DNA of 64,000 nt from NCBI GenBank assembly GCA_965178125.1, contig OZ237747.1, positions 62,001 through 126,000 of the forward strand. Reading direction: 5' to 3'. Below, in pieces: positions 1 to 60,136 of this stretch (within the stretch, counting starts at the first letter, position 1; each line of letters opens with the position of its first letter). Origin of the DNA: Bilabrum cf. latius. Taxonomy: Eukaryota. The translations under genes were made by a program, and so were the position numbers. Under the pieces are notes generated by a model. That model made no database searches. It had not been told where the DNA came from and saw nothing but the letters and a program-made list of their open reading frames with translations.

Positions 1-69
1 CTAGACTTCTAGCTGATTCAAACTGTTCGCAACCGAGGGGTAGCTACCAGGCTACGCTTGTATCTCCGA

Positions 70-1527
70 TTATTCGGCACCTGTGGCACGACCCTCTCCA
101 CCGCCCACCTGCTCCCCCAACATGAGACCCCTGATGTCCAGCAGTTCCTTTGGCACGCGCGCCTCGACTCGGTTGAATTCCACTTCCCAGGCGGCCCCTT
201 CGCCTATCCTCCCCTCCTCCCCTTGTTCCCTGCCCTGCCCGTTCCCGTCCAAGCAGGCAGCACCCGACCGTTGGACGCGATGGATGCGCACCAGGCCTGC
301 TCTGCTTCCACTGCCGGCAGCTCGCGGGGCCGGCGCCGCCCCCGACACGGTTGGAGGGACGAAGCTGACCTCGTCCTCATCCTCCTCCTCGCAGAGCTCG
401 GCACTGAGGGAAAAGGCAGGGTGGCGACAACTGGCGTGGGGCGGTGTCCGGTGGCCGATGGCATGCGAATCGGCTCGCTGCTCTTTCACGACCAGTCTGG
501 TCTCCCTGTCCCTATCTGCCAGCAGCCCACACCTTGCCTCCGGACGGAGAGGCGCGCTGGGCACCGCGATCACAACTCGAGGGCTAGTGAGAAGAGATCG
601 TCCATCCGGCCTAGTGCGCCGCCCCCACAGGTTCTTGACCCTGGATACCCGCTCTGCTGCGCTCCCAGCAGTGCCAAGGGCCCCTTTGGCGCCTTTCTGC
701 TGCCTGCCAACGGAATCGGCACGACCTGCACTGCCCGCCCCGCTGCCTAACTCAAAGGGCGCCAGACTCTCGATGTCCGTGCCTCGGTTGCGCGCCAGGC
801 TGTCTGCTTGTGCCTATAACGCTTTGAAACCGGCCCTCACCCATGCTTGCATCCTATGCTACGGCGGTTTATCGCCCTGTGGCAAATCGTGCTGGGTGCC
901 AGAAATTGACGCACCGGAGCTGCTGCTGTCTCTCGCACCACCCGAGGCTTTCGGATTCGTCGAAGTCCCGCTGGTAGCACCAGCATTGAGATCTTCCTCC
1001 TCGTGGGGTCCTGCAAGTAGGGCGTTTGCGGCACGGTGCCTGGGCGTGCCTGTTCCAGCAAGCAGTCCGATGGCTCGATGAATGAGTGCGTTCTCGACGC
1101 TGGACCACCCCGCTGAGTGGACACTGCCCCTGTCTCTATGAGCAACTGATTCGAATGGAATTAGTTGGTCAACTCCAAGTACGGCAATGTGATGACGGTG
1201 GCTTGAGGCCGCTGATCCGGCACGCAAGACGCTGTGCATGATCGCTCGAAGCGAATCGCATTCACAGACGTTCACACCGGAGGCTTCAGGTGGACATACT
1301 TCTGAGCCCCGCTAGTCACTTAATGCAGAATCTTGGCAAGATCCCCCTTGGATTCGCTTCATGGCTGACAGGTCCAAGCAGCCTTGGCTGCTGCACAGCA
1401 TGGAGCAGCTGCCTTCGCCTTTGCGATACTCAAAATTCAGGCGGAGCAACCAGTCGATCGCAATACTTTTCCGTAGACTGCGCTTGTAAATACGAATTGC
1501 CGGAAACACGACGCATACTACCAACAA
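70..1527 (-). CDS. Hypothetical protein (TAG read as sense; 5' end uncertain)
   Basis: ORF-track pieces 1312..1527, 859..1275 and 70..573 share one frame, are separated only by TAG codons, and end at TAA 70-72. An in-frame TGA at 1528-1530 bounds the frame upstream, so the true start or first exon is unresolved. No family recognised. Confidence 0.5.
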
Positions 1528-1727
1528 TCACAGCTCCGTGCGTGAGCCAAACAGGCCATGCTCACTCAAAACAGTCGCCCTCCAGTACCGCCGCCATTGT
1601 TGCCTCAATAGCCGAACCAAGCGCAAATGGATCGATAATATTTGAATTGGCTGTTGCTCAAGCCGTATGCCTGTGTTGCCCACTGCGGTGACCACAAGCC
1701 AATGATTCTTTGGTCGATTTCGGAATT

Positions 1728-1780
1728 CGTCCCCCTCCCGTGCCCAAGCGTGGGAGGGGGGGGTCCCACGCTTGGGCACC
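1728..1780 (+). repeat. Left terminal inverted repeat (53 bp)
   Basis: cgtccccctcccgtgcccaagcgtgggaggggggggtcccacgcttgggcacc is the exact reverse complement of 14607-14659. Confidence 0.95.
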
Positions 1781-1830
1781 CCTGCCCAAGCGTGGGACCC
1801 CCCCGTCCACGCCTGGGCACCCTACGCCTG
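1741..1830. repeat. Left subterminal array of alternately oriented TGCCCAAGCGTGGG motifs
   Basis: Copies at about 1741 (+), 1765 (-), 1783 (+), 1807 (-, 1 mismatch) and a partial copy at about 1822. Confidence 0.85.
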
Positions 1831-2377
1831 GAGCAGTCATCTGACTGCTCCAGCTAGTAGTTTAAAAGATGTTATGAACTCTAAATAAGATAAAGCTCAC
1901 ATACTCTTTACCGAGATGATTGAGGATCATATGGTCGCGGACCGGCCTGTGTTTGGACCAGCGGAACAGACCCATTTGGGGACGACGAGGATTGGCCCCA
2001 TAATGATCGTGTTCGCGCGCAGTTCATAATGAAGTTCATTTTCAATATTTTATTCTGGATATGGATATGGGCGCCGTTGTACCTTTTGGAAGGCCTGGAG
2101 CGGGGAATGGCTCCGATGGACCACTTGCAGGTGGACAAAGCATAGACAACCGTACACCTGACACAAAACGGTCCAAAAGATTATGATGGCGCGCAAAGTG
2201 GCTATAGCCCATATTTAATATCATACTTTTGGCGACAATGTTGGGGTCGCCATTGAGACACAAAGGACACAAGGGCTCGGACACTGGTAGCTAAGATTTA
2301 TCAATGTGTGCGTAGTTGCCACAGTCGTACCAAAAGCCTAAATAATTAGCCATCAAACCGGTAAATGAACGCATTTC

Positions 2378-5300
2378 TTACAGTGGTGAAGTCGCCACTA
2401 GGCGGATAAACTCTGCACCAATATCAGGCATTCCTAGCGGGGCCCAACCGCCTGCACTACCTTCGTCCCGGTCTATTCCATTGGTCGCTCGACGCGCAGC
2501 AAGTGGCCGAATTATGCTGTCAAGTGGAACAACATCTAGCCTGGGTCTAGCCAGGAATGGGGCATACGGTACTGGAAAACCAACTTGGGCCCACCATGTC
2601 TTCTCAAGTTCGAGTGAGAAGGGAGTGCGCACAAAGAGTGCGGGACCTGGCTTTTCGCCACCTGCTTCCGTCGATGGCGCTGTCTCGAATACTGACGAAG
2701 ATGAGGATCGAGATGATGGCTGACTGCTAGGCGCTTCAAGGGATGATGCACGTCCGTGTTTAGGCAGCAGTCCCGCCTAGCTAGAACTCTCAGCGGCTGA
2801 TGCCCTGTACAGCATACTATCCCATGCCAAACCCTAGGCTCTTCTGCGACGCATCGAAGCATCTGCAGGATTTGCTTCATCTCCCCTCGACTGATACATA
2901 CATCTGAATCGCTAATCCATCAAATCGAGTGGACTTCGGCCAGCCGCCACTTGCAGTGATGCATCGAGTGCAATGCTCACTGCGTCCGATGCTGAGCGAT
3001 GAGTATCGAATGGTCGCACAGGCTCGGGCAAACTAGCACTGCTGTTCTACTCGCCGACTACTTTGCCCACTACCATGCCCCGTTGCTCATTGAGTACTGA
3101 AACCAGCGTCCGGCGTTCCGCAACACTCTTCTCCGATTCCATCCGGGCTGCTGTTGCAGATCGCCACAGTGACGCAACAGCGTTTGTTGCTAGCTTGATT
3201 TCGTCACCGCCTGTTCGCCGGCGTTTCCTAGGGCGGCCATCATGTGACACATCCTCTGGGACGACTGGCTCGTCCTCCCAGTTCCCCTAGGAGCTCGTCC
3301 GTAGGTTCGGAGGCACCGATATAGGTGGGTTGTAGCTCGCGATAGGCATCTCAAACCCTCTACCAACAGCCTCTCGTGATTTAGCTGCCTCTTGGAGATG
3401 ATCGCTCGAAATAGAGTTCTCGGACACGCGTCGTCCACCAATAGAGGCATCCGCAGAGCCAATGGCAAAGCCACCTCTCCAAGCACGCTGCTCGTCAGAT
3501 GTCATTCTTCTATGCTTACCCCATGAGCTTCCCCATGCTTCCATTTCTGTGGCTACTTCAGGCGCATCGTCGCAGTCTTCCTCGCTTTCGTACTCGTATC
3601 GGCGTCGCTTGCGTCCCCTACTCCTTCCAGCCTTCGCCGCTGGCAAATCCCGCACGCTGCTGATTTGACCCCCTGCGGCCAAACTTGGGCGCCCCTTTGA
3701 TGGCGTGTCGTCAGTGAGCTGCATGGCGTGTTGATGGGCGTGTCTTTCCTACGTTCGCCCCCCCATCTCTTTGGCTTTCTTCGAAGCTACCCGCTTCCTT
3801 TGAGATTTCGGCGGGTACACTCTTTCCAGTGGTGCGAATCGTCTAATGACTGCCATGGTTGCTTCTGTTCCAAGCGGTGATACAAAGCAAACAAGTTCCC
3901 CGACGCACCATGGATTGTCACTTTCATCCCACGCCACCTCGTACGTTGGCTTTGCCTAATTTACCTCCGGGTGGTAGGCCACCATGCATCCACCAGTTGC
4001 CTCACTGTCGTTGATGCCATCGTTAAAATCGAACGCATTTCCATGCATGCCTGTGGAGTGGCACATGGAAGTCGCTAGTCTATGCTTGACCCTGCCTCCA
4101 TCCATATTGGCGAACCGATGGATGTCAGCGAAGCCGCGATCTATGTGAAACTGCTAGTTCTCAGCGGCTGCTGCCGTACCGTGTCGTTGCATGAAAGCTT
4201 CTCGTAACACGCATATTCCATGCAATACGTGAGAGGGTTTAGCGCCGCCAATCGGGTGGTTCAAGCACCGCTGTCGAACTCGATTGAACATCGCCGAGCG
4301 AGATGCACACTAACGAAGTCTTTGCACTTCTCTCTCGGTTGCCGTAAGCCTGTGTGGAGACCTGGGCGCTGGTGACCCTGCACCCGTACCCCCTTGACCG
4401 CTTGAATCAGAGCCTGCACGTGCTGCAACATCGACTTGGCCCGCTCCACCGCTCGCGGATAGACCGAGCACCGCTGATGAGTCAGGCCTAGGAGGTTCTG
4501 GCGGCAGTACCTAGTAGTATACTGACATACTTGCAATAATGTCAGCAGCATGATTGGGCAGAAGTGGCTAACGGCTTGCACCATGGGTTTGCCTATAGCA
4601 CACACGCGGTAGTGGAGCATCAGCAAGGATCCACTTATGCTCGCGCCATGAAAGGACTTCTGCGGCACAGCGTGGCCCGCTCCATCGTCTGGACCCATGG
4701 TGCGGTTCGCACCTTGGCTACGTTTCGCTATGAGAGACCTCAAAGCCCCCGTTGAGGTCATAACGCTCCTACGCGAAAGAGAATGCTCTAAGTACGTCTG
4801 GTGCCACCTGTTGCTACACTCCACGCTTCTAGCGAGTGTTGAGCCAAGTCGCTTGTGATGAACGATCCGCGCTCCCCGCAATCTATTCCAAGAAAGTTGC
4901 TGAACTTGGGGCTAAATAAGCTTCGTGCGGGCTTCTTTGATTGGCATCTAGTGTCCCGACAACATGGTCATGTTCTGCGCCCGCTTGAACTAAGAGGTCT
5001 GGTGTAAGAGCACCTACTCGAAGAGCAGCCTCACGAGCAGCTGCCGTGGCGGTGTCATCTATACCGTACTTGGCTGACAAAGCCCTGGACGTGCGTCTTC
5101 GTACATCATTTCGAAGGCGTCGTCCTGCTAGTTTTAGATCAGAACCACGCTGTTGCCTGGCCCACTCCTTTATCGTTCGGTTGTAGCCTTCCATTGCTGC
5201 CGTGGTCTACCCCTTAGGTAGCCCATTCAGCAAGCATGACTCAAGTAGATGCTCAATGTCGTGTAGCTTGCTGTGCATTCCAAAGGCATCTTCAACGTCA

Positions 5301-8300
5301 GACTTGTTGTGCCTAGCGTACAGTTCCTTGCGCACCTGTGCCATGGTTGCCCTCAACGTAATACCAGCCGAGCTCCTTGATATCACAGTGTCGACTGGCA
5401 TGGCATCAGCCCTCGTGATTGATAGCAGCTGCAAAGCAGAGGACAACATGAGCTGCACTGCGCGCAGTTCCCCGTGTGCCAGCCTCAAAGGTCCCCATGG
5501 GTCAACCAGCCGAGCTAAAGCATGTACCACCGCAACATTCTCTTCTGCTGTAACACACGTGTCGCTGAGCGACTGCTGGAACCGCTCGCCGCGTTGGATG
5601 CTGCCTCTGGCACTGCCCATCAGCATCGGTGAGAAATATTGTCCTACCCCGGAGGTACTCGCTACTCTAGGAGGGCACTAAGGCATGAAGCGCACTCCAG
5701 ACGCTCTTGATTGCTCTCGCAACAGCAATTCTGGGTTGGATCGCTCCTGGGATGGTATAGGTGCTGCTGCGCTCGACAGCAGTCTCCCTAGCTTCTCCAC
5801 ATATACCTCAATGTCTCGACCCGTGAGGCTGGCAGCTCGCTGCAAACGCTGTATGTCGCTAGCAATGATGACTTCTAGCACAGCAAGTCCCGCTAGCGAG
5901 GCAACTTGAGCACACAAGCTTCCTGTCAGGGTGTGCAGATCATCGAATGCCACCAGTGAGCTAAAGTCTATGTCTGATCGCCCTGCAATAGCGTGTAGCA
6001 GGCGCTTCCCATCGCACAGGAGTGTAGTCACGACGCCTGCCGTCCGGCCATTGCTGCTACTGCTGCCAGCTAAGATATCGTCTTGCACCGCTACTGAGTC
6101 ATGTACAACTGCAATCTATACGTGCTCCTGCAACAATGAAGGCACGCCATCAAGGCTATCGGATAGTCCCGCCGCTGCAAGCAAGCTTGGTGCCTTCTTG
6201 GATGATGCCCTGTGCATGACCCTTGCTGCCTGCATAGTCATGTGCGTTGTAAACTGCGGCCGTTTTATGCCTCTGTGGATTGGATCCACCCAGCTTCGTC
6301 CACGGCCCAACCGCACCACATCCTCCTCCACGGAAGTTGCTATCGTCGCGCACAGGGCGTGGTGCAAATAAGAAGCCTAGGTTGGCAAAACGAAAGCTTG
6401 CCCAGTAGGCCCAAGCTTTGAAGCCTGTACTGCAGGGCGGCCATACTTGTCCGGGACACCATGGCCAGAAGCCTGTTCTCTCTCGCGATCCTCGCTGCCA
6501 TCTTCATTTCCATCGTCACTACCGCTGGAGCTTGGCCCATGTGCTGCTCGCCCCTACCAGTAGGACACGGCTCGCATCGCATCTTTGTATGGGACAGAGT
6601 CGGTACTGGCAGACAAACACTTGGGACAAACGTTGGCCTTGTATCCCAGAATGTCAGCCAGCTCTGGACCATCCGCTACGATCAGTCGAAGTGTGACGAA
6701 AAATTCCAGCGTGCGAAGACCCAGCTTGTACGGGACGCTGCCCTGCGGGACCCTGACTCTGATTGGCCCCCGGCTGGTATGCAACATCAGCTATATCACC
6801 ACTCGATTCCATAACGACCTAAGTGCATCTCGCTTGCTTGAGGTTCTGTATGGCATGACACCAATAATTGTGCGTAGGTGATCCGTTGTCGAGGCTGCGC
6901 CTAGAACACACGCGCAAAGTGTGTGAACGTTCTTGACGGAGTACGAAAGGGTGGCGTCGCTCCATAAGCATATAGGGATATGGACACGGAGGTGTGACTG
7001 CAAGAGCTCTGACTTGGCAGGGGGTGTATGACCATCAGACTAGACAGCCGAGTGCTACTGGGCTCGCACGGCAGTTCGCCACGTTTCCCAATTGAACGTC
7101 GACGCGGTCGAACAACACCGAGCTTGCCAATCAGAAGCGACGGAAGCAAACGAAGTCTGGGGTGTAGCGCTTGCAGAGCCCCCTTGCGCCAAAGTTAGCA
7201 CGAAAGTCCAGAAAGACTGCGGGTCTTTGTCACACAGTGTGGTCACGATGGCCATGGCTGGATCGACGGCGAAGCCGCCTGTGTCAGGGCACAGGTCAAT
7301 GTCCAGCTCCACGAATTGCAAATAACCCTCGCCGTTGTCACAATCAAACCATTCAGCAGCCAATTCTTCTGATACTGCCGCTGCCTCAAAGCTGGCGGCT
7401 ACATGCTGCGAGATGCAAAAGCAATAGAGATGCTGCAGGTGTACCTCTCATCGTGGCAGTTCTTCAACTGCGACTGCAAGCGCTTATCTCACATCTAACT
7501 TCTGGATAACCTTCTTTGCTGCTCGCACTCGATTGTACTCCGTTGACGCAGTTCGCGCACTGTGGAATTCTCGCAAGCACCGAGCAGCATCCTTGCGAAC
7601 GGCCTGCGCAGCAGCCGGATGCTTGGCTTCCAGCCCGCGGGCCGTGGCCTCCTGTTGCTGCTCAAAGGCCTGCAGCGCCTCATTGATGGCACGATCGGGA
7701 TGCTTGGACCCTAGAGCTCGCTTTACAGACTTGCACAGAGTTTGTGCGAGCCCGACATCCTCCGATTCAGCCTCCTACACATAGTGCAGCATCTGGGTCA
7801 GTGCCTCCTCGTGCGCATCACCGGCCTTGGCATATGAGCTCACTGCACTGGCAGGGATATACACGACTCTTGTCAGGCCTTGTGCGGCTACTTCAAGTGC
7901 CGGAGGGTCAACTATGGTTGGCGTGGCTCGGGTGTTGCCGTCTGGAGCAGGGGCATGGCGCAGCCAATCACCGGTACCGGAGTCGCCTGAACCCGGCAAC
8001 GAGTCACTTGATGCCAATGAGCTTGGAGTAAGTTCTATATCTGTATCTGGCTAGAACCCCCCGCCGATATTTTCCATGTAACCACCTGGATCCAAGGATT
8101 CTAACAGATGCATGTCGCTTGCTCGGAGTCTTGCGTCGGAATCTCCGACGGTGTTCGACATTGGAGTCCTTGCATCTATGCCTGATCCAGCCTATGTCTC
8201 TGAATCCGGCTCAACCACAGCTGCTGCAGCACTTATACTGTTGTTCGAATGTGATTGCACTCCACTTCTGGTTGACCGTGATAGCTCCGTGCCAGCTCCC

Positions 8301-8383
8301 TTGCCAGCTTCCCCAACCTAATTGTTGCTGCAAGGTAATGGCAAAGCAAACATTCGGTAAATATTATTACGCGCATATTCCAT
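2378..8383 (-). CDS. Plavaka/CMC-like DDE transposase, ~1970 aa (TAG=Gln; intron 7492-7406; possible extra 5' exon above 8450)
   Basis: Eleven ORF-track fragments lie in one frame (7775..8017, 7055..7363, 6791..7003, 6554..6787, 6116..6367, 5678..6088, 5207..5626, 4883..5194, 3749..3937, 3287..3724, 3047..3250), followed by 2378..2632. They are joined by about 28 TAGs. The only TAA/TGA inside fall in an 87-nt phase-0 GTGAGA...TCGCAG intron. Motifs: IPICLWSDAT (D1, ~6958), LIVADGPELADILG..NVCPKC (D2, ~6673), SYLHH, and SKLHDIEHLLESCLLNGLPKG*TTAAMEGYNRTIK (catalytic E, ~5191). Confidence 0.75.
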
Positions 8384-9201
8384 AATTACTGAAGGTTGGA
8401 TACGATAGTGACAAAGGGATGCGAACCGGACTACACCATCACTACCTCACCTGGGATCTACTCCCACAGACTGTGCGACGGATCCTTGCCGTAAACCGAT
8501 CTAAGCTATACTTGCCTGAATTTGGCTAAGTTGTTGCACCGCCTCGAGTGTGCGCTAAAACTCAACCGAGGTAAGCCGTCCGAGATCCTGCAGCCGGACT
8601 CCTTCAGCTCCTCTGACGTTCTACTCAGCGTCTCGATATCCATCGGGTAGGTATCTACGCAATAATTCCAGTGCATTTGCGCACTTTTGGCTGCCACATC
8701 GTAAGCAGTGCGCATGCATCTTGTCCTTGATACCGAGCCGTGCACCACAAGGTGCAGTGGCACACGATACAGAGCTCATCACGCTGGTTGTAGAGCCTCG
8801 CACACACGAATAGAATAATAATAGCTAAAAGGGTACCTCTAGACGAAAGTATAGGCGCGAAGAGTTGAGAATTTAGCCAAACTTTCTAATTGCCAGCGAA
8901 CAGCGGAACCAGATCGGATCAGAATCGCGGCGCCACGACCGTTGCAAATCGCGCACAAACAGCCTTGGGAGCATACATACAGTCAGTATATCAGGCGTTT
9001 GTACCTTTCAGTCATTTAACCTGAGCTTGGTTTTGCCTTCGTGATTGGTGAGTACCTAGTTTCCCCCAAAAAGCAGTACAATGATTGCGATGGCACTGCC
9101 AAGCAGGATGTCCCACTCAAATCTCGGAGGCAAGTATTATATTTTTGCCCTACTCTAGCATCCTTTTATTCAGCAGGTCCGATAGATTCGATTCTAGAGC
9201 T

Positions 9202-12200
9202 ATGATGCAGACAGCAGCGGCATCAGCCGCAGGAAGTGCGCCCGCCACGCTAAACGGTCGTGAATTGGACGCAGCTGCTGCCAGCGCGGCACGGCCGATG
9301 GATTCGCAATCGCTATCGAGCCGAGCTGTGAGGTCCCCAGCTCAGGTAGCTGTAGCAATCTCGACCGGGAGATTGGATGCAACCTTGTCCCCGCCGAGGG
9401 AAGACGAGCAAGCAGCACATTCAAACTTCGTATAGGCTATGCTACAGCATATGCCAAATGAAGCATTTGCACCACGGCTTGGAGGTTGTGCTGATATGTC
9501 CCGCGTTCTAACGGCGGTGGTGATCGACACCGTAGCCGGCATGCTATGCAGGATTCCAGGTCGAGATCCGAGGCACGCCGCTCAACTACAGCAACTGAGT
9601 GCAAGTCGGACACATCATGGAGTCAACCATGTTGACATTCTCCAAGTTCCAATAGTGAACCAAGATGGACATCCAGGCAAATTCGATCCCGGCAAGTTGG
9701 CCAAGGTTAACGAGGCTGATGATGCTGTTGTTAACTGGGCACGTGGCACTTCAAGTTACGGCGGGTCTTCTAGTTCAAGTTCGAGCGGGACATCCTCTGC
9801 ATTAGCTCTGAAAGCCAGGCTGTAGGTTCGACAGGGGTTGCTGGCTGCTCGGAGTGTATAGATGTTGTAGGGCCGCGAACATGCTGCGATCCGGAGCGAG
9901 ACTGCGAGCTAGGTGGCTTGTGACGTGATCAGTATAGGAACGGCAGCAGAGGTTCTTGCCGTCATCCGTGCTGCAATGGTAGGACCTGGACGCCAGCTTC
10001 CTGTAGACATTTTGCCGAATGCTATCCCGGAAGCAATCAAGGGTAGCTCCGCCCGACTCTGCCAGGACATTTTTGCAGGCGCGGCACTTGTAAACCCTAA
10101 GACGGATGCTGGCAGTACGAGCATCATTTCTGGCCCACTGAGTTGCGTGTCTGTTGTCAGCAGGCTGGCAAAGGCTAGCAAGACGAAAGGAGGACAGGCT
10201 GCTGGTGGAAAGAAGGCGTAGCAAGCAGAACTGATGAGGTAGCTTGGAACTCTACGAAGCAAGAGACGCTCACGGCCTTCCGGTGAGCGGCGATACGTGA
10301 AGGCGGAGCATGCTCGGCTTGAGCGGGAGGGGAGAGGACAGGCTACCATATCGACAGTGAGCATCTTCTAGCATGAACGAGTAGCAGCACTTGCAAAGGC
10401 AGCAGGTATGCTAGCTTCGTGTTTGCTGTCGACTGACGACAAGACAGCCCGAACAGCACGGGTCAATCAAGCTGTGCAGCTGGCATCATCACTGTCTGAA
10501 AGACAATGCGTCGAGCTTGGGTACAACGAGGCACTCCTGTCCCTCGAAGTCTCCGCTCAGACTAGCTTGCGGCGGGCGCTACAGAGCCTTCACAGCGAGG
10601 TAGAATCCGAAGACGATAAGAAAGGTGTTAAGGTGGTGATCGACTCCTTGATCACACTTAGTGGAGAGGATGCAGGCTTGGCCGCACACCTGGCTGCAGT
10701 AGCATCGGTTGCTCAGGACGATGGGAATGACTAGTCTGTCGGTCTCAAAGTTATGCTTGGGCTCATCGCACTGGCTGACTTTACTGCTCTTGGTTTGCGA
10801 ATGGGCATATACTACTGGAGCAGCGACGGCAGCGATGACGCTACGTTCGAAGCGAGACCGGTGCAATTCCCAGTATCGCTATGCGGCAATGCAATCGTGC
10901 AGGCCCTTGTCAAGGCAAGGGACGAAGTATTCCGGAATCGCAAGGGATGCACAGTGCAAGCTTGCCCACCTGCCAGCGAGGGTGGACTCGAGCTAAATCA
11001 TCCATCCGGGCTGGACAGAACGTAGCAGGCAGCTTTTTGCTCTCTCATCGATGCTTGTATTGGACGTAGCACAGCTGCATTCATCAACGTTGTCGGAGAC
11101 TGCGCTTCGGCGGGTGTTTCGATCGATTCCGGAGACCACATAGTTGAGTCATATTGGATGTCCAGACACCAAGCCTGTATCGTGCGGAATGCCAACGTCG
11201 CTGCCCTTGGTGATGGTGCTGTCGATCACGTGAAACGATGGTTGAACGACACCACGAAAGAGGCACCTGCTTGTGAGTCTAGGATTGAGACGGTGTTTGC
11301 TATTGCAAACCAACTTGGTTTTTCTAGTCCGGCCGGGGCGCCATTGAACTCTGCAGAGCACAGCGCGTTCAAGTTATGGGTGTTGGCTGAATCCAAAGCA
11401 CGTGCGCCCCTGTCCAGGTTCGAGACGGCATGCGACCTGGTGGCATCAAGATATCCACATGACGCTGGTGTTGTTCCTGCTGTCGTTCGGTTGCTGGTGA
11501 CAGACACCACGTCACGATGCGTACACTTCCGTCGGGCCGGGATTGACTTAGCAGCTGTGGCGGTGGTAGCAACATAGCTAGATGAGGACTCGATTCAAGA
11601 CGAGGGTGAGCCAGCAGATCGCACTGCCACGTCAGGGGCTGCAGCAGGATTGCCCGCATCGTCTGATTCTACCGGTCCATCTCCACTGGACTAGCTGGTC
11701 GACTTAACTGCCGTTGCCATACACACGCTTGCCAATCGATGCGGCTACTCCTTCGACTCACCTGACGGGGAGGGTAAAGACGCTGGTGATGACGGCTGTA
11801 GGGTCGCCGACTTGGACGAGGTCGCTCGAATTATCAATAGAGATCGACGTATACCTAGCCGTATGTTGTACAAGCTGCCAGACGTAGTAGCAGCTGGCGG
11901 TCCGAAACAATTTCCGCGTTTGTCTGACGTAGCCCTACTTGCTGCTTCCCACCTTCGATCAGTTCGAGTAGGCATCAAGAATACTATAGGAGTCTCTAGG
12001 ACGGTGGAGAGGCTTTCCCGATCAGATCGAACGAAATGGATTGCAAGCAGCAAATGCAAGAAGGCGTGGAGAGACTGCAATGCACTTGGTAGCCATGCAG
12101 TGCTGGATGGCATGCTCTCCCGGTCCATGTCAGACAAGCTCTTCAGGATTCCGATTTAGTATGGATTCAAAGAGGCATGTGATGCGGCATCTGATGGAGA

Positions 12201-13060
12201 ACCAGCGTGCTGCCAGTTCCCTGTGTGCCTGCCGTACCGCATGATCGAATTTCCGGTAGCTGCCGCGTTGGCGATCGACATGACATAGAAGAAGAACCCT
12301 CACAAGCATATCCTAGCTGGGATTTCTGGAGCTAGCTCTAGCGCAATGAATGCCTGCCTCAGATAGTATCGGTTGTTGCTCCCGGACTGCAGTCCTGGCG
12401 GTGTTGAGCGGCATCGTGTTTCCTCGTGCCTGAAGGCACTGCTCGAGTACGACGGCAGAGCTACGCCCGCCTCGCTAATCAAGAACATGTGGCTCCCCAA
12501 GGATGTTCGAGAACGAGTGTCGCCCGATGTTGTAGCTGAAACTGACAGCTCCATTGAGCTAGTTGTCACTATTGCACCGGGACTGCACAGCTTGGCATCA
12601 GCAAAGAGCGGCATCCCACTCTTATCCTCATGCGATTTACCTGACAGTGAAGAACCAATCCACATAGTTCGCGCACTCCTTCCTGGGGTGTTGGCTCGAG
12701 CAGCGCTGATAGGAGCGGGGTTGCATATTGACCGCTTGAAAAGTTCATCTTTCTTTCCTGGGCAAATACCGGCCAGCAGCATGGAGCTTGACTTGCAAGT
12801 AGGGCCAACCTCAGGAAGTGGGGTGAGTCGTACTAGAGCAGGAGTTGATTCGGATGAAGACAGTACTGCCGCTGGCAGTGAGCGCAGATTGCGCTAGCAC
12901 CATGGACTGAGCTCTGCACTGGAGTCATCCTCTTCTTCCGCAGCTGCACAATAGCCGGAGGGTCCTGGCACTCGACGCTCCGCCCCCATGTTCAAGAACA
13001 AATCTGAACCAAATGCTGATGGGAATGAGAAAGACCCTGAGGAGCCGCCGCGCCGGCGTC
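9202..13060 (+). CDS. Transposon ORF2, large hypothetical protein (>1280 aa, runs into the assembly gap)
   Basis: ORF-track fragments starting at 9085, 9439, 9913, 10408, 10753, 11158, 11812, 12373 and 12988 share one frame and are interrupted only by TAG. ATG at 9202. Divergent from the transposase. No domain recognised. Confidence 0.65.
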
Positions 13061-13260
13061 NNNNNNNNNNNNNNNNNNNNNNNNNNNNNNNNNNNNNNNN
13101 NNNNNNNNNNNNNNNNNNNNNNNNNNNNNNNNNNNNNNNNNNNNNNNNNNNNNNNNNNNNNNNNNNNNNNNNNNNNNNNNNNNNNNNNNNNNNNNNNNNN
13201 NNNNNNNNNNNNNNNNNNNNNNNNNNNNNNNNNNNNNNNNNNNNNNNNNNNNNNNNNNNN
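13061..13260. other. Assembly gap (200 N)
   Basis: Run of n characters. Confidence 1.
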
Positions 13261-13491
13261 ATGCCGGGTCACCAGCGGCAGGCATAGTCTCCGGAGGTAG
13301 CGGCAGTACTAGTGCACAGTCGTAGGTGGGTTGGCCGGTTTGGAGATGCCAGAGGGACCCTCACCAACTCTTGGAGACAAGAGGAAACTATCGGCAAGGA
13401 CACCACCTGCATAAGGAAGAGATTACTGGCAGTAGGGTGATCTGCGTCCTTGCTCTCCTTATCAGGCTGCGGTAAGTTGTTGTACACCTGC

Positions 13492-13844
13492 CCCTGCTGG
13501 TCGTTGCCGTGTTGACTGCACTCCCGCCCCCCACTACCGTAGCATGCCGAGTGGCACCGTCTCGCTGTACCATGCCTTGTATACGCAGGACTGGATGGAG
13601 TGTGCGGTGCATATGCGTCCTATGGCAGTCTGTGTCCTTGCTCCACTTCTCGGGCTGCGGTGAGTTCAAGTGGGATATTGCTATGGCTGCCTCATTGGGT
13701 GTCGATGTTCAGTGGGCCTGCGCCCTGCTGGTCGTTGCCGTGTTGACTGCACTCCCGCCCCCCACTACCGAAGCATGCCGAGTGGCACCGTCTCGCTGTA
13801 CCATGCCTTGTATACGCAGGACTGGATGGAGTGTGCGGTGCATA
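13492..13844 (+). repeat. 122-bp direct repeat (13492-13613 and 13723-13844)
   Basis: ccctgctggtcgttgccgtgttgactgcac...ggagtgtgcggtgcata occurs twice, 231 bp apart, with one mismatch. Confidence 0.9.
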
Positions 13845-14524
13845 GCGGCTGTGCATGCGCTATGAGGCAGGCTTGTACCGCTGCCGTTTCTCTAAGGCCA
13901 ACGATTCACCGCTGGCTTGGGATTAAGACATTCGTTGTGCAATATTTGGCACCATTTGTCATGGTTTTCGAATTGATTCTGTAACTTGTGGTGACCACTC
14001 GGCGGCCTGGTGCGTGCTGGAAAGCATCGCGGACTCCAACCAGACCACGGACTGGGTGGGTCTGACTCGGCCGCAGTAGAGCGAGATCTGAGCGACGTTC
14101 TCGCGGCAGGGTCAGGGGGGGGTGAGCTGACTTAGGAGGGGCTGCTACTTGTAGGCGATGGCTCCGAGGCTCGCCTCTGCAGATGGGCGACCTCCTGCGG
14201 TCTTCCACTAGGCTCCGCATCCCCTGGGCCGTGGCATGGAGGCGGGTGCTTAGAGGGTCGGCCAGTCCACCGTAGGCTCGGGCTCTGGCTCGTCGAATAC
14301 TCCGAAGACGAGGTCTGTAGAAGGGTCGAGTTGAACTGACCTCTGCTTATGACTTGAATGGCAAGCTTTGCTGCCACATCTTGCGAAGTACTACTGTACT
14401 ACCAATCAGTGGTCCATCGCGTGATACCGAAGTGAATATATTGTAAGTAAAAGAAATATACAACCTACTAGTACCCGATAAGCAAAAGCAGCAAGATTCA
14501 ATGCCAAGTTTATCCCCCTACCTG

Positions 14525-14646
14525 TGCCCAGGCGTGGGTAACTCATTCCACGCTTGGGCCATCGACCATGTGCCCAAGCGTGACCCCACGCTTGGGCACC
14601 GGGGGAGGTGCCCAAGCGTGGGACCCCCCCCTCCCACGCTTGGGCA
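14525..14646. repeat. Right subterminal array of alternately oriented TGCCCA(A/G)GCGTGGG motifs
   Basis: About six copies near 14525, 14548, 14571, 14585, 14609 and 14633, alternating in orientation. Confidence 0.85.
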
Positions 14647-14659
14647 CGGGAGGGGGACG
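14607..14659 (-). repeat. Right terminal inverted repeat (53 bp)
   Basis: Reverse complement of 1728-1780. Confidence 0.95.
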
Positions 14660-14731
14660 TTGAAAAGTCATCCCCCCGCCGGGCCTGGCCTGCTCCATTC
14701 TCCCAAGCCAGGTTAAGGAAGGTCAACGCTC

Positions 14732-15589
14732 ATGGCGATTGCATTGATAACGGGAGGTGCACGTGGTTTGGGACAGCAGTTCGCAATGAGGCTGCTCGAT
14801 GCAAAGGTGGTAACAAAGGTTGCTCTTTTAGATCTACTGGACAGCGTACATACGACTTCGGCAGATTTTAACGCGAAGTACGGGCCCGGTACCGCAATGG
14901 CAGTGAAGGTAGACGTGACCAATACAGAAGCTCTGGAAGCTGCGTTTGATCAAGCTGTAGCGTTTGGAGGGTCTGGCAAACTAGACGTGGTTATCAATAA
15001 CGCCGGAATCGCAACTCCAGGGCTTTCTAAAGCTCGTCCAGCCGTTCTGATCAATTTGCTAGCGGTAATTGAAGGCACACGGCTAGCACTGGATCGAATG
15101 GACGGGCAAGGATCCATCGTTAACGTTGCCTCGTACGCAGCCTGCGTTCGGGTGCCGTTCAGTCCCGTGTATGGAGCAACAAAATCGGCCGTGCTACACT
15201 TCTCCCGCTCTCTAAAGTACAAGGCTGCGGAGGGAATCCGCGTGACGGCCCTGTGCCCTTCCTTCGCAGACACCCCGATGGTTCGCGAGAGCATGGGCAT
15301 GCCCACCACGCAGTCTGCCATGTCTGTTTCCAGCGCCGTGTCTGCCCTGGGCACGCTCATGACAGCGGAGCACGTCGCCAACGAGATGCTCCGCCTGGTG
15401 CAGGACGAGTCTCTTGCAGGCGAGGGGCTTGTGGTCACCCCGAGAGGCACGTATGTGTACGAGGCCGGGCGGAGGCCATCTGCACCTGAAGGGGCGGAGA
15501 GGAGGGGGTCTGCCACTGCCACTGCCTCTTCGGTGAAAGCAGCCGCAGTTGGTCTGAAAGGGAGTATGCACGGCTCGGCCAAGTTGTAA
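14732..15589 (+). CDS. Short-chain dehydrogenase/reductase (15-hydroxyprostaglandin dehydrogenase-like), C-terminal AKL
   Basis: ALITGGARGLG (TGxxxGxG), LDVVINNAGI, IVNVAS and YGATK (YxxxK). Ends ...GSAKL-TAA, a PTS1-like signal. Confidence 0.9.
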   Translation: MAIALITGGARGLGQQFAMRLLDAKVVTKVALLDLLDSVHTTSADFNAKYGPGTAMAVKVDVTNTEALEAAFDQAVAFGGSGKLDVVINNAGIATPGLSKARPAVLINLLAVIEGTRLALDRMDGQGSIVNVASYAACVRVPFSPVYGATKSAVLHFSRSLKYKAAEGIRVTALCPSFADTPMVRESMGMPTTQSAMSVSSAVSALGTLMTAEHVANEMLRLVQDESLAGEGLVVTPRGTYVYEAGRRPSAPEGAERRGSATATASSVKAAAVGLKGSMHGSAKL

Positions 15590-15801
15590 CTGAGTGCAGT
15601 GCTGCAATCGGTGAAATACAGAAAACCATCTTGATTGTCGTTTCGCCGCACGCGGCACCGACCTGCCCTGCTGTATACTCGCAAGCAACTCCAAACAGGA
15701 CCAGAATCATGCACATGGGCATGCGTTTAATCTGTCCGATACCTATAATTCTCACTTCGAGCCAGTCGCCCGGTCTTCCATCCTGGGTACAGTGAGTGCC
15801 C

Positions 15802-17590
15802 TCAGAGGGGCAGCTCGAAGTTCACGTCCACGTTGATCTCCTCTGCCTGACTCACGATGTTGGCCACCTTGACGGCCTTCTCGGCAGCCTCGTCCAGGTC
15901 GTCCACCATGATGACCCGCACCTCGTCCGAGGCTGCTTCCATGACCTTCTTGGCGTTGTCCACGTTGGTCCCCTGCAGCCGCACGATGAGCGGCTTCCTC
16001 AGCCCGATCGACTTGGCCGCCGCCACGATTCCCTTGGCGATCATGGACGTGTCCACGATCCCGCCAAAGATGTTCACCAGGATGGCGCGCACCTTCTCGT
16101 CCGAATTAAGGATCTTGAAGGCCGCCTGCACCTGCTTCTCGGTGGCGCCCCCGCCCACGTCCAGAAAGTTGGCCGGGTTGCCCTCGTGCAACTTGATGAT
16201 GTCCAGGGTGGCCATGGCAAGCCCTGCCCCGTTGACCATGCACCCGATGTCCCCGTCCAGCCCGATGTAGTTCAGGTCCCACTTGGCCGCCTCCACCTCC
16301 CTCGCGTCCTCCTGCGCCTCGTCCCTCTGCGCGAAAATGTCCGACTGGCGGAACTCGGCGTTGTCATCGAAATTGATCTTGGCATCGCACACAAACACGC
16401 CGCCCTCGGGCGTCTCAGCGAGCGGGTTCACCTCCACCAGAGTTGCGTCTGTGCTAAGGAACATCTTGTAGAGCGACTTGGTCGTGGACTCGATCTTGGC
16501 CTTGCCATCCTCGCTATCGAAGCCCAGAAAGTGAGCCAGCTCGTCGATCTGAGCGTCCGTGGGACCCGCCTCCATGTTGACCACGGGCACCTTCATGATC
16601 GCCTCCGGGGTCTGCTCCGCCACGTCCTCGATCGAGGTGCCGCCCTTGTACGACGCCACGATCACGGGGCCGCCCGTGCCTCGGTCCATGAGCAAACTCA
16701 AGTACAGTTCCCTGCGCATGTATAACCTCTCCATCAAGAAAACCCTGTCCACGGGGCGCCCCTCTGCCCCCGTCTGCTTGGTCACCAGCTGCTGCTGCAG
16801 CATCTTGCCGGCCAGGTCTTTCGCCTGCGCCGGGCGCGTGCAGATGTGCACACCGCCCTAGAACCCGTTCGTGAACGTACCCAAGCCCCTGCCACCTGCC
16901 AGAACCTATGCCTTGATTACAACGTCGGCTGAATCTGCGATGCACTAGCAAAGGCGCGAAGCGATCCGCAATGCTGACCAATGGCTCAAATCGGGAAGCA
17001 ATCGGACAGCGAGCTAAAGCATCAAGTCCGCAGCTATGGCATGAGTTGCGGCCAATCAAGGGCATCGACGCGTCTGTACATATGCTTTGCTTTGGGCGAT
17101 GCAGCAATAGCCACAACGATGCGCTGAGGTGTGTCGGAATTCCCCAGCACACCGCCAGCGCACCGCAAGCTTTCAAGTCTCACTGCCTCCACCGCTGATC
17201 TCATGATACGCTGCTTCCGCCTCTTCTGCTGTTGAAGCCACAGCACTACGCGGGACAGGCACACCGTACTGCTTCATGATCTCCATGGACTGGTATTCGT
17301 GCAGATTCAAGTACCTTCGCTGGGCACCTGCCCTGAGTCGCGGAGCCTGCGGGTCAAGAAATCGGAATGAGTGTCTCAGAAAGCAAACAATAGCAAATGG
17401 AAGTCGATTATTCCTATCAGATCCATTGCAGTCGGCCAGGGGCGCGGGCGCTAATGGCATATAGTGCAACTATTCGCCGGTACCGGCTGCACCTTGCCCT
17501 GGGGCATAGCTTGAGGTGACTGAACGTGATTCTCACCAGGGCTGCGTTACGAGCAGGCCTTAGGAAGTGTCTCAAACGCCCAAGAGCCAT
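15802..17590 (-). CDS. Mitochondrial succinyl-CoA ligase beta subunit (exons 17590-17537, 17346-17184, 16934-15802)
   Basis: RRYLNLHEYQS, VVIKA*VLAGGRGLG, GCMVNGAGLAMATLDII, NPANFLDVGGGA and ILVNIFGGI motifs. Two GTGAGA...GCAG introns in compatible phase. In-frame TAGs at 16906-16908 and 16858-16860. Ends at TGA. ADP- versus GDP-forming isoform not resolved. Confidence 0.95.
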
Positions 17591-20906: not shown

Positions 20907-23900
20907 TCACTTCTGCTGCATGCGGTAGTCCAGTCCCTGGTTGCCCGCGTCCTGCACGTCTGCGGCCCCGTACGAGAACTCGCGCCAGAGGGCCTCCTCC
21001 TCCGGCCGGAAGGTGTCTCGGTGCCCTGCCACCATGGGCACAGAGGCGTGCAGGAACGGCCCCAGGGCGTTCCTGCGGCTGCGGCCCACGCTCTTGGCCG
21101 GGTCGTTGAAAATGCTACCCCTGGAAGCGGCTCGGTACAGGTACCCCACCTCTGGCAGCAGCAGGATCCCCTTGCCCGCGTTCTTGAGCTTGGAGAACAG
21201 GTTGTAGTCCTGGTAGGCCACCCCCTAGGCCACCTGGGTGTACCCCCCCACATCCCGGAATGCGTCGGCGCGGTGCAGCGCAGACCCCGCCCCGAAGGTG
21301 TTGACGAACATGCTCAGCGGACCCACGTCCCCGAAGGGACACCACTGCCCGTGCTTCGCCTCTTCCTGCACCTCCACCGCGGTCGGGTCTGGGTTCCGGA
21401 ACGTCTCCACCCAGGTGGTCACGACGTCAGCGCCCTCCCTGTACATGGCCGCGACCATCTTCTCGATCGTGTGAGGGAGCAGGTAGTCGTCGTTGTCGAA
21501 GAAGTACAGCAGCTCACCAGTGGCCCTGGAGGCGGCGAAGTTGCGCGCCCCCGACGCGCCCAGGTGGTTCCTCTCGAGCAGCATGCCGCCCCCCGGCTTG
21601 ATCAGCCGACGCACCTCTGCAAAGGTCGTGCGCTCCTCCTCGCTAGACCCATCGTCCACCACGATGATCTGCAGGTGCTTGTACGTGGAGTCAAGCACAG
21701 ACCGCACTGTGGCCAGCAGCTCCTCGCCCCGGTTGTAGTTGGGGATGCAAACTGAGACCAGGGGCCTCGTTTGTTGAGGGAGTTTCAGCGGGGCCACGTG
21801 CATCTCCGAGTCCCGCCCGAACACTGCGATCGCTGACAGCCGCCGGTACATGGCACGGATCGCCTCCCTGCGCCGAAGTAGCGCGCTGGCATCGGGTACG
21901 CTGGCGCCCACCGGGCACTCCTCGCCCCCGTCCTCCACGAGCGCGCGAGCCATGTCACCGATGTCGTCGTCGCGGTAGGTAGAGCAGCTCGAACCATCCA
22001 TCAGATGCGCATACCGGGCGGGTGCCAGCACTGCAATGCCCCACTGGCTCGCCCTCGCCACCAGGCTGGCCTCGGTGCGACTGGCGGGCGCCAGCACCAC
22101 GGTCGCGTCCTGCGGCACCGTCTGCAGGACCTCCTCCATGGACAGCTCGGAGGTGTCGAAGCTGCGGAAGGCGTCCTTGCTGTTCCCGTCCATGGCCCCG
22201 GGAGGCTGCGCGTCCAGCCCGCTAGTGCGCTGCCTCTCTCTCACCTGCTCGCGGATCGCCTCCACGACGCCATCGTCGAAGGCACGGCGCAGCCTGCGGC
22301 CGTAGAACCACACGTTGCTGATCACGCGCCCAACCGGAGAAGCCCTTGTCGACTGCCCGTCACTCCCGCTGGCAGACAGCAGCTGCAGCTCACTCTCCTG
22401 CTCCTGCTGCGAGCGAGCGGCACCGACGGCGTGCAGCAGCTGCTGCAGCATCACCTCCGTGGTGGACTCGGTCTCAACCACAACCAGGGTGCGCTCTGCA
22501 GCGGACCCAGCGGCGGGCGGCCGAGACGCCGTGACATCTCTCGCCCCAGGCATGGGCGGCGGCATGATCGCGATGCGCCTGGCCCTCACGTTCACCCGGA
22601 TGTCTTGCACGCGGTCTTCCGGCGTGGGGTACACGATCACGTCAGCCATCTGCTTGGTGGAGTGCTCGGCCACTGTGGCGAACATGTATGCGCTCGAGTC
22701 CAGGAAGCGGCCCTGCTCGCGGTGCCTGTCGCGCACCGAGCTCGTGGCCAGCGCCACGAAGGCAGTCCGCAGGAACTGCAGGCCCAGCACTCGCCGCCGG
22801 AGGGCCAGCTCGGGTACGGGAAAGTGGCCGTCAAAGAATACCACCTCGTAGTGGTTCTCGCGGGCCTGCAGCCACGCCAAAAACGCATGCATCGCAGTGT
22901 GCAGGTCGGTCTTCGGGGAGGGGCTGCGGCCGGGCACGGAGGCGGGCTGCTCGAACACCCGAATGCCCAGCCGGCCCGCGTGCTCCACGATCTTGCGCAG
23001 GTCTCCGCGCGGGATCCTCGGCGTGTTGGCGAGCAGCAAGTCCACAGGGCCCGCATCAGCCAGCACGTGCGCCACTGCGAAGGGCTCCGAGTCTAGTATC
23101 CCCTGCGAGGACTGCCTCCTGCCGGACGTGACCACGAGCTGCCTCGAGCCGTGGATGGCCTCGTCGTCGACAGCCAGGAGCGCCGCAATCTCGAACACCT
23201 CGATGGGCTCCTTTGAGCCCTTGATAAACCGGATGCGCACACCAGCTGTCCACTGCGGGCCACTGGAAAACATTAGCCGGAACATTTGCACATCCTCGGG
23301 CATCTGGTCAGCACCGGCCATTGCGTGCAGCCGGCTCTTGGGAGCCTCTGCCTCCTGCTTCACGTTGACCCGGGATACCCGCCAATTCAGCCTCTTCCAG
23401 TGATTTTCCTAGTCCTGCATCTCCAAGATGTGGTCGTTGGGGTGCAGCAGCTCTCCTCGAAGGCCCACCAGCAGACCACGCACGAAAGAGTGGTGCACCA
23501 GGCCAAGCCCGAACCAGGCCTGTCTGGGGATGCGGGTGCCGGGCTTCCACGCAGATCTGAGGTCCCCATCCACCGCGGCCGCGAATTGAACGGATGGCTT
23601 GCGCACGGCCCACCCTTGTGGAAACATAGCACGCGCCTGCGCATTATTTGCTGCAGGCTGCCCCTTCGAATTGCTTGTATCCCCATCGCCCTCTCGCTTC
23701 TACTGCCTCCCGTCCACTTGAGCATCCATGGAGCTGAGAAACATGCAATCGTCACTCTGACAAATCGCTTTTTCGGGGAGAAGCATCCAATCTCGCGTCG
23801 CGAATACATGTGGAATTCCACAGTCGAACGGCGCACTGCCCAGCACCTTGAGCGGGGGCAGGGCAGACCCGTCCGGGGCACGGGGCGCCTCTTCCAACAC

Positions 23901-25874: not shown

Positions 25875-26183
25875 CGTTTGTGGTCCGTTTTTTTGGGTAG
25901 GCGCAGAAAACTATAAATACACGTTACTGGTTTTGCTCCAACAGTTGGACATTTTTGGTGTTTCTTTGGCCTCCCGCGGGCTGATGTGTATCGTTTACTT
26001 GGTCTACACGAAGCCCCATTAGGGAGCGGTGCCTCATACCGTCAAAAATATTCCAAACAGCTCGTCAATGGTATTCTGGGCTGCTTTCGGCAAAAATTCT
26101 GTCTTTACCAAATTGACTCGTCACACACCTGAACACCCGCATTAAAGATTCGCCGAATCGGAACGTCGCAGTTGTTGTCAAGT

Positions 26184-40441: not shown

Positions 40442-40650
40442 TGTTGTATACGTGCTGGATAGTGAGGGCAATCAGAAAGGGTTTGCTGGTTCCTCTTTAT
40501 TCGAATTTTACATTTAAAGTGCACTGCTTAATGCCTTAATTTACGAAACCGGCCACTTTAGCCCTGGTAGTCTCGATCATGGCCGGTAGTCGCAGTTACA
40601 ATTCATCTGTAGCGTCCATTTGCTAGCGGTTCGCAGCACGAGCAGGCAGA

Positions 40651-60004: not shown

Positions 60005-60136
60005 GCACGAGTGATGAGTTGCACCTGATGTTCCGCAAAAATGGCGGCGGCCCAAGTACGACACATCTTGAGTGTAAACGAGAGCCTCACGGGCGATGGA
60101 GGCGGGATTTGAAATAGTACGAAAGAAACGGTTGAC

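Follow-up and report, generated by a model that had tools for sequence, protein, structure and literature searches.

The segment at 1728-14659 of the window (the whole 64-kb stretch of DNA analysed) is probably an autonomous, recently active copy of a cut-and-paste class II transposon, whose gene 1 would encode a divergent transposase of the CMCT clade, i.e., the clade of EnSpm/CACTA, Mirage, Chapaev, Transib/RAG1, Plavaka, ESTA and Lanisha. It is bounded by terminal inverted repeats (TIRs) at 1728-1780 (plus strand, beginning 5'-CGTCCCCC) and 14607-14659 (minus strand), which pair with each other over 53 nt each with 100% complementarity. The terminal 23-nt word has two sites in the 64-kb window, which are the two ends of the element, with 0 expected from shuffles (n = 100). 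The termini are CGTCC..GGACG, i.e., 5'-CG..CG-3'. An earlier sequence-only reading had described perfect 53-bp TIRs, termini other than CACT and TT at both flanks, and the letters confirm it in all three respects.

Contigs from four public sequencing runs (X4, X5, X6, and X7) were compared with the window. Several lose the match exactly at 1727/1728 (one in X4, two in X5, and one in X7) or exactly behind 14659 (three in X4), which fixes the element boundary, and the boundary-crossing contigs run on into foreign flank for up to 255 letters. Since the contig matches stop precisely at 1728 and 14659, where other flanks take over, further copies exist. X5 and X7 also include contigs common only over 1728-1773 and divergent beyond, and internally deleted derivatives were found with the joints 2307->8162 (X5, ~91% identical) and 9877->13772 (X6 and X7). 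The exact ends on other flanks together with the deletion derivatives demonstrate that the mobile element suspected by the sequence-only reading is real and multi-copy, and it is probably active at present. That reading had also taken the copy to be complete at ~12.9 kb. Both ends are indeed present, but an assembly gap of 200 N lies inside the copy at 13061-13260, bridged in each of the four runs by one contig with 414 letters between 13060 and 13261; because 200 N replace 414 bases, the nominal 12,932 bp correspond to a true length of ~13,146 bp. The gap could be taken as a sign of an assembly artefact or of an immobile host gene pair inside an inverted repeat, as could the lack of an empty site, for which reads had been proposed as a check: the joint 1727->14660 was not seen among the contigs of any of the four runs. 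Such an explanation is scarcely credible, as the window sequence recurs in contigs from three separate studies, the exact termini recur on other flanks and deletion derivatives occur.

At the junctions (...GGAATT/CGTCC on the left and GGACG/TTGAAA on the right), the TT at 1726-1727 equals that at 14660-14661 and is a candidate 2-bp target site duplication (TSD). A dinucleotide match arises by chance in about 1 in 16 cases, both flanks are known for one copy only, and other copies have differing left flanks (ending ..CCCAT in X4 and ..ACTC in X7), unpaired with right flanks. The TT/TT could therefore be a coincidence, with no TSD made or with one of another length masked in the window copy. We regard this as rather unlikely, though well worth considering, because 2 bp lies within the TSD range of 2-5 bp given for the CMCT clade in the available part of PMC12730594 and would match the 2-bp TSD of PlavakaA given there. 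The window copy cannot have a longer intact TSD, because the flanking 3-mers (ATT on the left, TTG on the right) and 8-mers (TCGGAATT and TTGAAAAG) are unequal, as are the other longer words.

Each end of the element carries a subterminal zone with copies of a 16-nt motif. The left zone (1740-1853) holds four of them in alternating orientation, at 1740-1755 (plus), 1764-1779 (minus), 1782-1797 (plus), and 1805-1820 (minus, degenerate), followed by a hairpin palindrome at 1828-1853, while further copies in the right zone (14515-14606) are located at 14524-14539 (plus), 14546-14561 (minus), and 14584-14599 (minus). All seven matches of the motif in the 64-kb window fall at the element ends, compared with 0.10 expected. 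Because the motifs alternate in orientation, both ends are strongly hairpin-prone, and single-stranded DNA folds reach -62.1 kcal/mol for 1728-1860 (z = -11.8) and -63.6 kcal/mol for 14510-14659 (z = -11.0). The 13-nt core of the motif was not found in L001 or L002, the loci of relatives described below, and a scan of prokaryote genomes gave no match to the 28-nt terminus. The right part of the element also contains a 122-nt direct repeat on the plus strand (13492-13844) in two copies, 13492-13613 and 13723-13844, which are 99% identical and 231 nt apart; its copy number varies, because one X5 contig jumps back 228 there.

Gene 1 is encoded on the minus strand, where the ORF at 2378-7447 comprises 1689 aa with 24 TAG codons. 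Exon 1 (8451-8779) starts with the ATG at 8779 and encodes a Cys/His-rich N-terminus, exon 2 (7493-8327) lies between two contig-confirmed introns, and exon 3 (2378-7405) has 1675 codons, followed by the TAA stop at 2378-2380, and covers the putative catalytic core and the conserved C-terminal region. Intron 1 (8328-8450; 123 nt, GT..AG) is missing at the joint 8327->8451 in X5, X6, and X7, a joint absent from X4, and intron 2 (7406-7492; 87 nt, GT..AG) is missing at the joint 7405->7493 in X5, its plus-strand ends being CT..AC. A predicted 60-nt intron at 7433-7492 was rejected, as the contig joint gives 87 nt. The relative L001 has the same exon end as intron 2 of the window, followed by GTGAGA, and the last 70 residues of exon 2 align with L001 upstream of its putative intron (E 6e-6). 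Joined by these two introns, the three exons form one frame of 2063 codons from the ATG to the TAA without an earlier TAA or TGA, in agreement with the ~2000-aa transposase expected beforehand. One X5 contig covers 2360-7101 with 0 differences. The spliced forms were observed in runs whose RNA nature (X5-X7) is an automatic guess, X5 being flagged 'probably DNA' despite its GT..AG joints, and no RNA record containing the stretch was found.

The two divergent giant ORFs noticed previously are present on the minus (2378-7447) and plus strands (9085-13440, 18 TAG), given TAG as a sense codon; both are open only when TAG encodes a residue, and the same holds for the host genes in the window. The spliced gene-1 frame contains 31 TAG, 0 TGA, and a single TAA, which is the terminal stop, and the other two frames over the same sequence contain 20-63 TGA. 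The TAG codon within the H(3)H/E stretch described below aligns with an invariant Gln. The host is a microbial eukaryote, GC-rich and poor in introns, that uses TAG as a sense codon, most likely for Gln.

The genes are separated by a central spacer (8780-9201), presumed from their orientation to act as a bidirectional promoter. Gene 2 (plus strand, 9202-13060) has at least 1286 codons with 17 TAG and no TAA or TGA, and the continuation of the 9085-13440 frame past the gap is an artefact, because the N count differs from the true base count. An intron in the 3' part of its transcript (13472-13588, plus strand; 117 nt, GT..AG) corresponds to the X5 joint 13470->13588 (cut +1), with GTAAGT at 13472. 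Pfam and NCBIfam gave no family for gene 2 and no TET/JBP, SET, methylase, or ParB-like domain in it, and a word-indexed protein search at shorter lengths gave no homologue; judged by these comparisons, its product is an orphan protein.

A phmmer search with gene 1 against 1.84 billion protein-cluster representatives yielded two relatives only, P0003 (E 2e-67) and P0004 (E 2e-20). A homologous ORF of 1495 aa with 16 TAG was present on a metagenome contig (L002), and its protein is collinear with exon 3 in four segments (E 3e-25, 1e-18, 5e-11, and 8e-5), so protein conservation extends to TAG-containing relatives. No match was obtained in a metagenome scan with the single gene-1 protein or in a viral-contig scan, and word-indexed protein searches with gene 1 (near lengths) and with the family profile returned nothing; as the latter missed even P0003 and P0004, these negative results, and the word-indexed one for gene 2, carry little weight.

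The conserved stretches of the gene-1 protein suggest an RNase-H-like DDE nuclease, for which we infer D538, D633, and E1127 as candidate catalytic residues. The candidate first Asp, residue 538 of 2063 (6956-6958, minus strand), lies in WSDAT, and LWSD.TL is common to the window protein, P0005, and P0004. The candidate second Asp, residue 633, in LRLIVADGPEL, is followed 15 residues later by the C(2)C pair of CPKC (residues 648/651), and this stretch (6617-6673, minus strand) is kept in the same three proteins. An H(3)H pair (residues 1103/1107) stands 20-24 residues ahead of the candidate Glu 1127 in SKLH...HL.E....G...GQ.T.A.E (5189-5263, minus strand), which is invariant in the window protein, P0005, and P0003. 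Every family member that covers a motif keeps it, in the order D, D, C(2)C, H(3)H, E. PMC12730594 defines the CMCT signature by a C(2)C pair and an H(3)H pair that follow the second Asp and precede the Glu, and by comparison of the motifs with those of relatives the gene-1 protein carries such pairs.

The sequence-only reading had called the element CMC/Plavaka-like. The motifs that it named are present and kept in relatives, but the Plavaka profile (PF18759) matched a gene-1 fragment with 11.7 bits, below its cut-off of 26.3 (E 0.15), over 35 residues around the second Asp and the C(2)C pair, which correspond to positions 215-249 of the 325 in the profile, and the unrelated family RNHCP scored slightly above it on the same fragment (E 0.082), likewise sub-threshold. 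The search with Pfam Plavaka and Transposase_21 profiles that had been recommended accordingly gave no family at threshold. Pfam matched nothing in the whole proteins of both genes at E<=1 and nothing in P0004 at E<=10, PF02992 and PF13960 did not match gene-1 fragments at E<=10, and only noise was obtained from Pfam for exons 1 and 2 and the C-terminal region and from NCBIfam. In the ESM Atlas, queried with the 36-38% identical relative P0004 in place of the window protein, 7 of the 30 listed feature matches were Plavaka clusters (score 0.95, 168 shared features). Among the seven structure rows listed for P0004, three were dominated by Plavaka and one by Transposase_21, and the top one was Plavaka with TM 0.49 over 260 residues, all TM-scores being <0.5 and the model pLDDT 0.51. 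DUF4218 was a faint Atlas lead for P0003 (score 0.90; 13% of members carry it).

A genuine TIR transposon whose transposase founds its own superfamily outside the CMCT clade, with D, D, C(2)C, H(3)H, and E convergent or over-read, would account for the lack of a curated profile match, for the 0 matches of the family profile to PDB sequences at E<=10, and for just two related clusters among 1.84 billion. The CG..CG termini, the very long distance of 494 residues between D633 and E1127, and the two AlphaFold models, whose mean pLDDT of 33.3 and 43.8 is too low for fold comparison, point in the same direction. We nevertheless consider a separate superfamily improbable, because the best Pfam lead that can be interpreted and the neighbours in the Atlas indicate one clade (Plavaka, Transposase_21, and faintly DUF4218), and the zinc-type pairs, in their order and in their distances from the second Asp and the Glu, fit the clade signature of PMC12730594.

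If gene 1 encodes a divergent CMCT transposase, an unusually long insertion of ~490 residues would part D633 from E1127 in its core, with the C(2)C after the second Asp as a putative zinc-type pair and the H(3)H pair ahead of the Glu. The enzyme would recognise the 53-nt TIRs and the alternating 16-nt subterminal motifs, excise the element, and reinsert it via a short staggered cut, possibly of 2 bp. The gene 2 product could serve as an accessory protein. TnpA of En/Spm binds subterminal motifs, and by analogy it is our guess that the gene 2 protein does likewise. We tentatively hypothesize, while holding it at somewhat less than even chances, that the element founds a new CMCT lineage ranking with Plavaka, ESTA, and Lanisha, restricted to a group of protists in which TAG encodes glutamine and marked by CG..CG hairpin-prone ends of alternating 16-nt motifs, the ~490-residue core insertion, and a novel accessory protein of >1286 aa, which may bind the 16-nt motifs or counteract silencing.

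As a DNA transposon in a eukaryote that has reassigned a stop codon, and one probably still transcribed, spliced, and active, the element offers a natural marker for the TAG-as-residue code. It may also serve as a genetic tool in a lineage that probably lacks any. It would add a very divergent branch to the transposase clade related to RAG1; because standard profiles fail to detect this branch, repeat annotation of such genomes will overlook it and cut it at each TAG. For transposon biology, it would add one more lineage and no new principle.

Compared with known systems, the large transposase with its Cys/His-rich, zinc-like N-terminus could also recall a KDZ (Kyakuja/Dileera/Zisupton), hAT, Mutator, or other non-CMCT DDE element, and the available parts of PMC12730594 and 10.1101/2025.02.11.637652 describe accessory genes in those groups too. 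We consider such an origin highly improbable, as the flanks show no 7-8 bp duplication, whereas the TSD is 8 bp in Zisupton and 7 bp in Kyakuja according to the available part of PMC12730594, and none of those families appears in the Pfam leads or among the listed Atlas rows. The same part gives CMCT termini as CA..TG 'in most cases', from which the CG..CG of the window element departs, and its CGTCC..GGACG differs both from the TGT..ACA of PlavakaA and from the CATCA..TGATG of PlavakaB given there. Plavaka, known from fungi and red algae, provides the best interpretable profile lead and the nearest Atlas clusters of P0004, and it is alike in that both pairs, C(2)C and H(3)H, stand after its second Asp and before its Glu. 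In large size and an extra gene the element resembles the giant, 17-19 kb long Plavaka elements of a red alga, which carry accessory genes as well (10.1101/2025.02.11.637652). Points of difference are the profile score well under the Pfam cut-off, a transposase about twice as long, a host in which TAG encodes a residue, and an accessory gene devoid, by Pfam and NCBIfam, of the TET/JBP, SET, methylase, and ParB-like domains.

The element shares with En/Spm (CACTA) the two-gene layout and short subterminal motifs in both orientations within long ends, as well as the single Transposase_21 row among the seven listed for P0004 and the faint DUF4218 lead for P0003, but it has no CACTA termini, no 3-bp duplication, and no PF02992 or PF13960 match. 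The En/Spm gene products arise as alternatives from one transcript, whereas the genes in the window are divergent. Transib makes 5-bp duplications. With Transib and RAG1 the gene-1 protein has the residue order in common, i.e., Asp, Asp, a Cys pair soon after and a His pair ~20 residues before the Glu, but the family profile matched no PDB chain (E<=10). Both are counted among the sharers of the clade motifs in the available part of PMC12730594. The gene-1 enzyme looks like a very distant relative of the Plavaka, EnSpm, and RAG1-type transposases, which makes the element a new branch of an already known kind.

The element (1728-14659) is mobile and multi-copy. When contigs from four public sequencing runs of three separate studies (X4 to X7) were aligned to the window, several left the element exactly at 1727/1728 (one contig in X4, two in X5, one in X7) or at 14659 (three in X4) and ran on for up to 255 letters into unrelated sequence. 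These contigs are further copies at other sites, and their break points fix the element boundaries to the base. Copies with the same terminal inverted repeats (TIRs), which the sequence-only reading had proposed to seek elsewhere, were thus recovered with exact termini and other flanks in X4, X5 and X7; the empty site that it also proposed to seek did not appear, as no contig among X4-X7 joined 1727 to 14660, nor was an excision or empty allele seen in them. An X5 contig of about 91% identity joins 2307 to 8162 and has lost gene 1, the putative transposase gene, and contigs of X6 and X7 join 9877 to 13772 and have lost gene 2, the presumed accessory gene, as is typical of non-autonomous derivatives with internal deletions. 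Other contigs of X5 and X7 match the outer 46 nt alone (1728-1773) and continue into the same unrelated sequence, so this terminus is also used outside the element and may belong to a second element family or to a miniature derivative. Over 2360-7101, one X5 contig shows 0 differences from the window. Recent activity is indicated indirectly by the perfect TIRs, intact frames, identical contigs from three studies, several insertion sites and spliced forms.

A repeat search returned the TIRs as perfect as first claimed, with arms of 53 nt at 1728-1780 and 14607-14659, 100% complementary and separated by 12,826 nt. The terminal 23-mer has two sites in 64 kb, both of them element ends, with 0 expected from 100 shuffles. 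The left junction reads GGAATT followed by CGTCC and the right one GGACG followed by TTGAAA, hence TT is common to both flanks, which share no word of three or more letters. The layout and ends of the proposed ~12.9-kb element stood and its length did not: 13061-13260 is a run of 200 N inside the element, in whose place 414 letters stand between 13060 and 13261 in one contig per run, in all four runs, so that the true size is ~13,146 bp and not the nominal 12,932 bp. Beside the gap, contigs of X4, X5 and X6 have one extra T behind 13330, where the window may contain a one-base error or represent a variant copy. Each end is built of copies of a 16-nt motif in alternating orientation with G or C runs between them. 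The left end has four copies and the right end five or six; matches of this motif in the window number 7 and are confined to the element ends (0.10 expected). Folded as single strands, the two ends reach -62 and -64 kcal/mol (z = -11.8 and -11.0).

Read with the standard code, the element interior holds only short ORFs. The two divergent giant ORFs claimed for it do appear once TAG is read as a residue, one on the gene 1 side (2378..7447, minus strand, 1689 aa, 24 TAG) and one on the gene 2 side (9085..13440, plus strand, 18 TAG). The long frames of the window with ordinary eukaryotic domains (carnitine acyltransferase, GT64 plus GT2, Rsm22, DHHC, Kelch) are likewise open solely with TAG as sense, e.g., 20907-25994, 26133-28451, 28591-33339, 40540-42531 and 45363-51554. 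These host frames stop at TGA or TAA and mostly have no introns, and the carnitine acyltransferase frame has one TAG within its conserved domain, flanked by homology on either side in the alignment to carnitine acetyltransferases of solved structure. The spliced gene 1 frame contains 31 TAG, 0 TGA and a single TAA, which is its terminal stop, and the other two frames over it contain 20-63 TGA; gene 2 has 17 TAG and neither TAA nor TGA across 3858 nt. Judged from these frames, the code of the element is that of the host. Gln is the likely meaning of TAG, since relatives have Gln opposite three of the gene 1 TAG codons, and at one of the three this Gln is invariant. TAG makes up about 31% of the putative Gln codons in the element vs 0-16% in six host frames, and the GC content is 54.7% vs about 58-72% in the rest of the window, a range noted with the host genes; the composition of the element is therefore unlike that of the host.

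Gene models were derived from run contigs aligned to 700-16700, using joints at which the skipped stretch reads GT..AG on the coding strand. Gene 1 has minus-strand introns of 123 nt (joint 8327 to 8451; X5, X6, X7) and 87 nt (joint 7405 to 7493; X5), whose removal leaves a single open frame that starts with the ATG at 8779, spans 2063 codons and closes with the TAA at 2378-2380, in agreement with the transposase of ~2000 aa proposed before. X5 also revealed a plus-strand intron of 117 nt (13472-13588) and, in the adjacent host gene, an intron at 1478-1565 (joint 1477 to 1566). None of these joints occurs in contigs of X4, which behaves as genomic DNA. The spliced forms argue well, though not conclusively, for transcription, X5-X7 being taken as RNA by an automated guess, with X5 flagged as probably DNA. 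Beyond the gap, the 9085..13440 frame is artefactual, and the window does not allow the 3' end of gene 2 to be read.

Pfam gave no family in the whole gene 1 or gene 2 protein at E<=1. When 1.84 billion cluster representatives were searched with phmmer, using residues 120-900 of the exon-3 frame as the query, only two proteins matched, both singleton clusters: P0003 in the C-terminal half of the core (E 2e-67) and P0004 in its N-terminal half (E 2e-20). A metagenome scan recovered the P0004 gene on two contigs, L001 and L002. The L002 frame (2-4489) encodes a protein collinear with that of gene 1 over four segments (E 3e-25, 1e-18, 5e-11 and 8e-5), including the conserved C-terminal region; this relative likewise requires TAG as a sense codon, with 16 in 1495 aa. 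On L001 (112-1572 and 224-327), the upstream exon stops at the residue homologous to the exon end in the window, and GTGAGA comes next in both, which indicates that the position of intron 2 is conserved; the database entry P0004 seems to begin within that putative L001 intron. Gene 1 thus encodes a genuine protein that is conserved in a small family carried by TAG-reading organisms.

Every family member covering them has the motifs LWSD.TL, LRLI..D..EL and SKLH...HL.E....G...GQ.T.A.E, with CP.C 15 residues after the Asp of the second. The candidate catalytic residues are D538, D633 and E1127 of the spliced protein; the candidate second Asp is followed by a C(2)C pair, and the candidate Glu is preceded, at a distance of 20-24 residues, by an H(3)H pair. 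In a Pfam rescan of 200-residue pieces, the expected transposase profile surfaced below threshold: Plavaka PF18759 matched the second-Asp piece (E 0.15; profile positions 215-249 of 325) at 11.7 bits vs the 26.3 cut-off, and one unrelated Pfam lead of similar weight fell on the same fragment. No curated profile threshold was reached. With P0004 as the query, 7 of 30 ESM Atlas feature hits were Plavaka clusters (score 0.95), and 4 of the 7 structure rows listed were dominated by Plavaka (3) or Transposase_21 (1), the best row having TM 0.49 over 260 residues; P0003 gave a faint DUF4218 lead only. On the opposing side, the family profile matched no PDB chain, and both AlphaFold models were unusable (pLDDT 33.3 and 43.8).

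The CG..CG termini of the element also count against membership of the CMCT clade (EnSpm/CACTA-Mirage-Chapaev-Transib-Plavaka-ESTA-Lanisha). According to PMC12730594, transposons of this clade bear the same C(2)C and H(3)H signature, make duplications of 2-5 bp and mostly have CA..TG ends. Plavaka proper and EnSpm proper were each rejected on their defining termini and profile threshold. The element quite likely functions as CMCT transposons do and is probably a member of that clade. The transposase would bind the TIR and the subterminal motifs, use DDE chemistry to cut at the CG termini and integrate with a short stagger, and gap repair after excision would produce the deleted derivatives seen; we infer this mechanism as a whole, from binding to repair.

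The copy in the window is flanked by two host genes in divergent orientation. RNA-like run contigs extend up to 1681 on the left side and begin on the right side at 14682, indicating insertion into a very short upstream stretch shared by both genes, even if contig ends cannot prove transcript starts; no more than about 70 bp of host sequence separates these contigs (intervals 1566-1681 and 14682-14751) from the element ends. Elsewhere in the window, a minus-strand frame of 1590 aa (55394-60166), for which no family was found, consists mostly of about a hundred tandem copies of the 8-residue GGQEGVHR and lies in a region with a GC-skew extreme. Low-complexity tracts, among them long runs of Gly-Ala and Ala-Pro dipeptides, sit at 28591-33339 (minus) and 34311-39146 (plus) within otherwise conserved host frames, e.g., that of the Rsm22 methyltransferase.

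Gene 2 matched no Pfam or NCBIfam family, and one homologue search returned no homologue; its position and the motif-rich ends resemble, by way of analogy, the setting of the En/Spm second protein. Giant Plavaka elements with accessory genes have already been described from red algae, according to 10.1101/2025.02.11.637652, and the present element is a very divergent, not previously described version of an already known transposon type.
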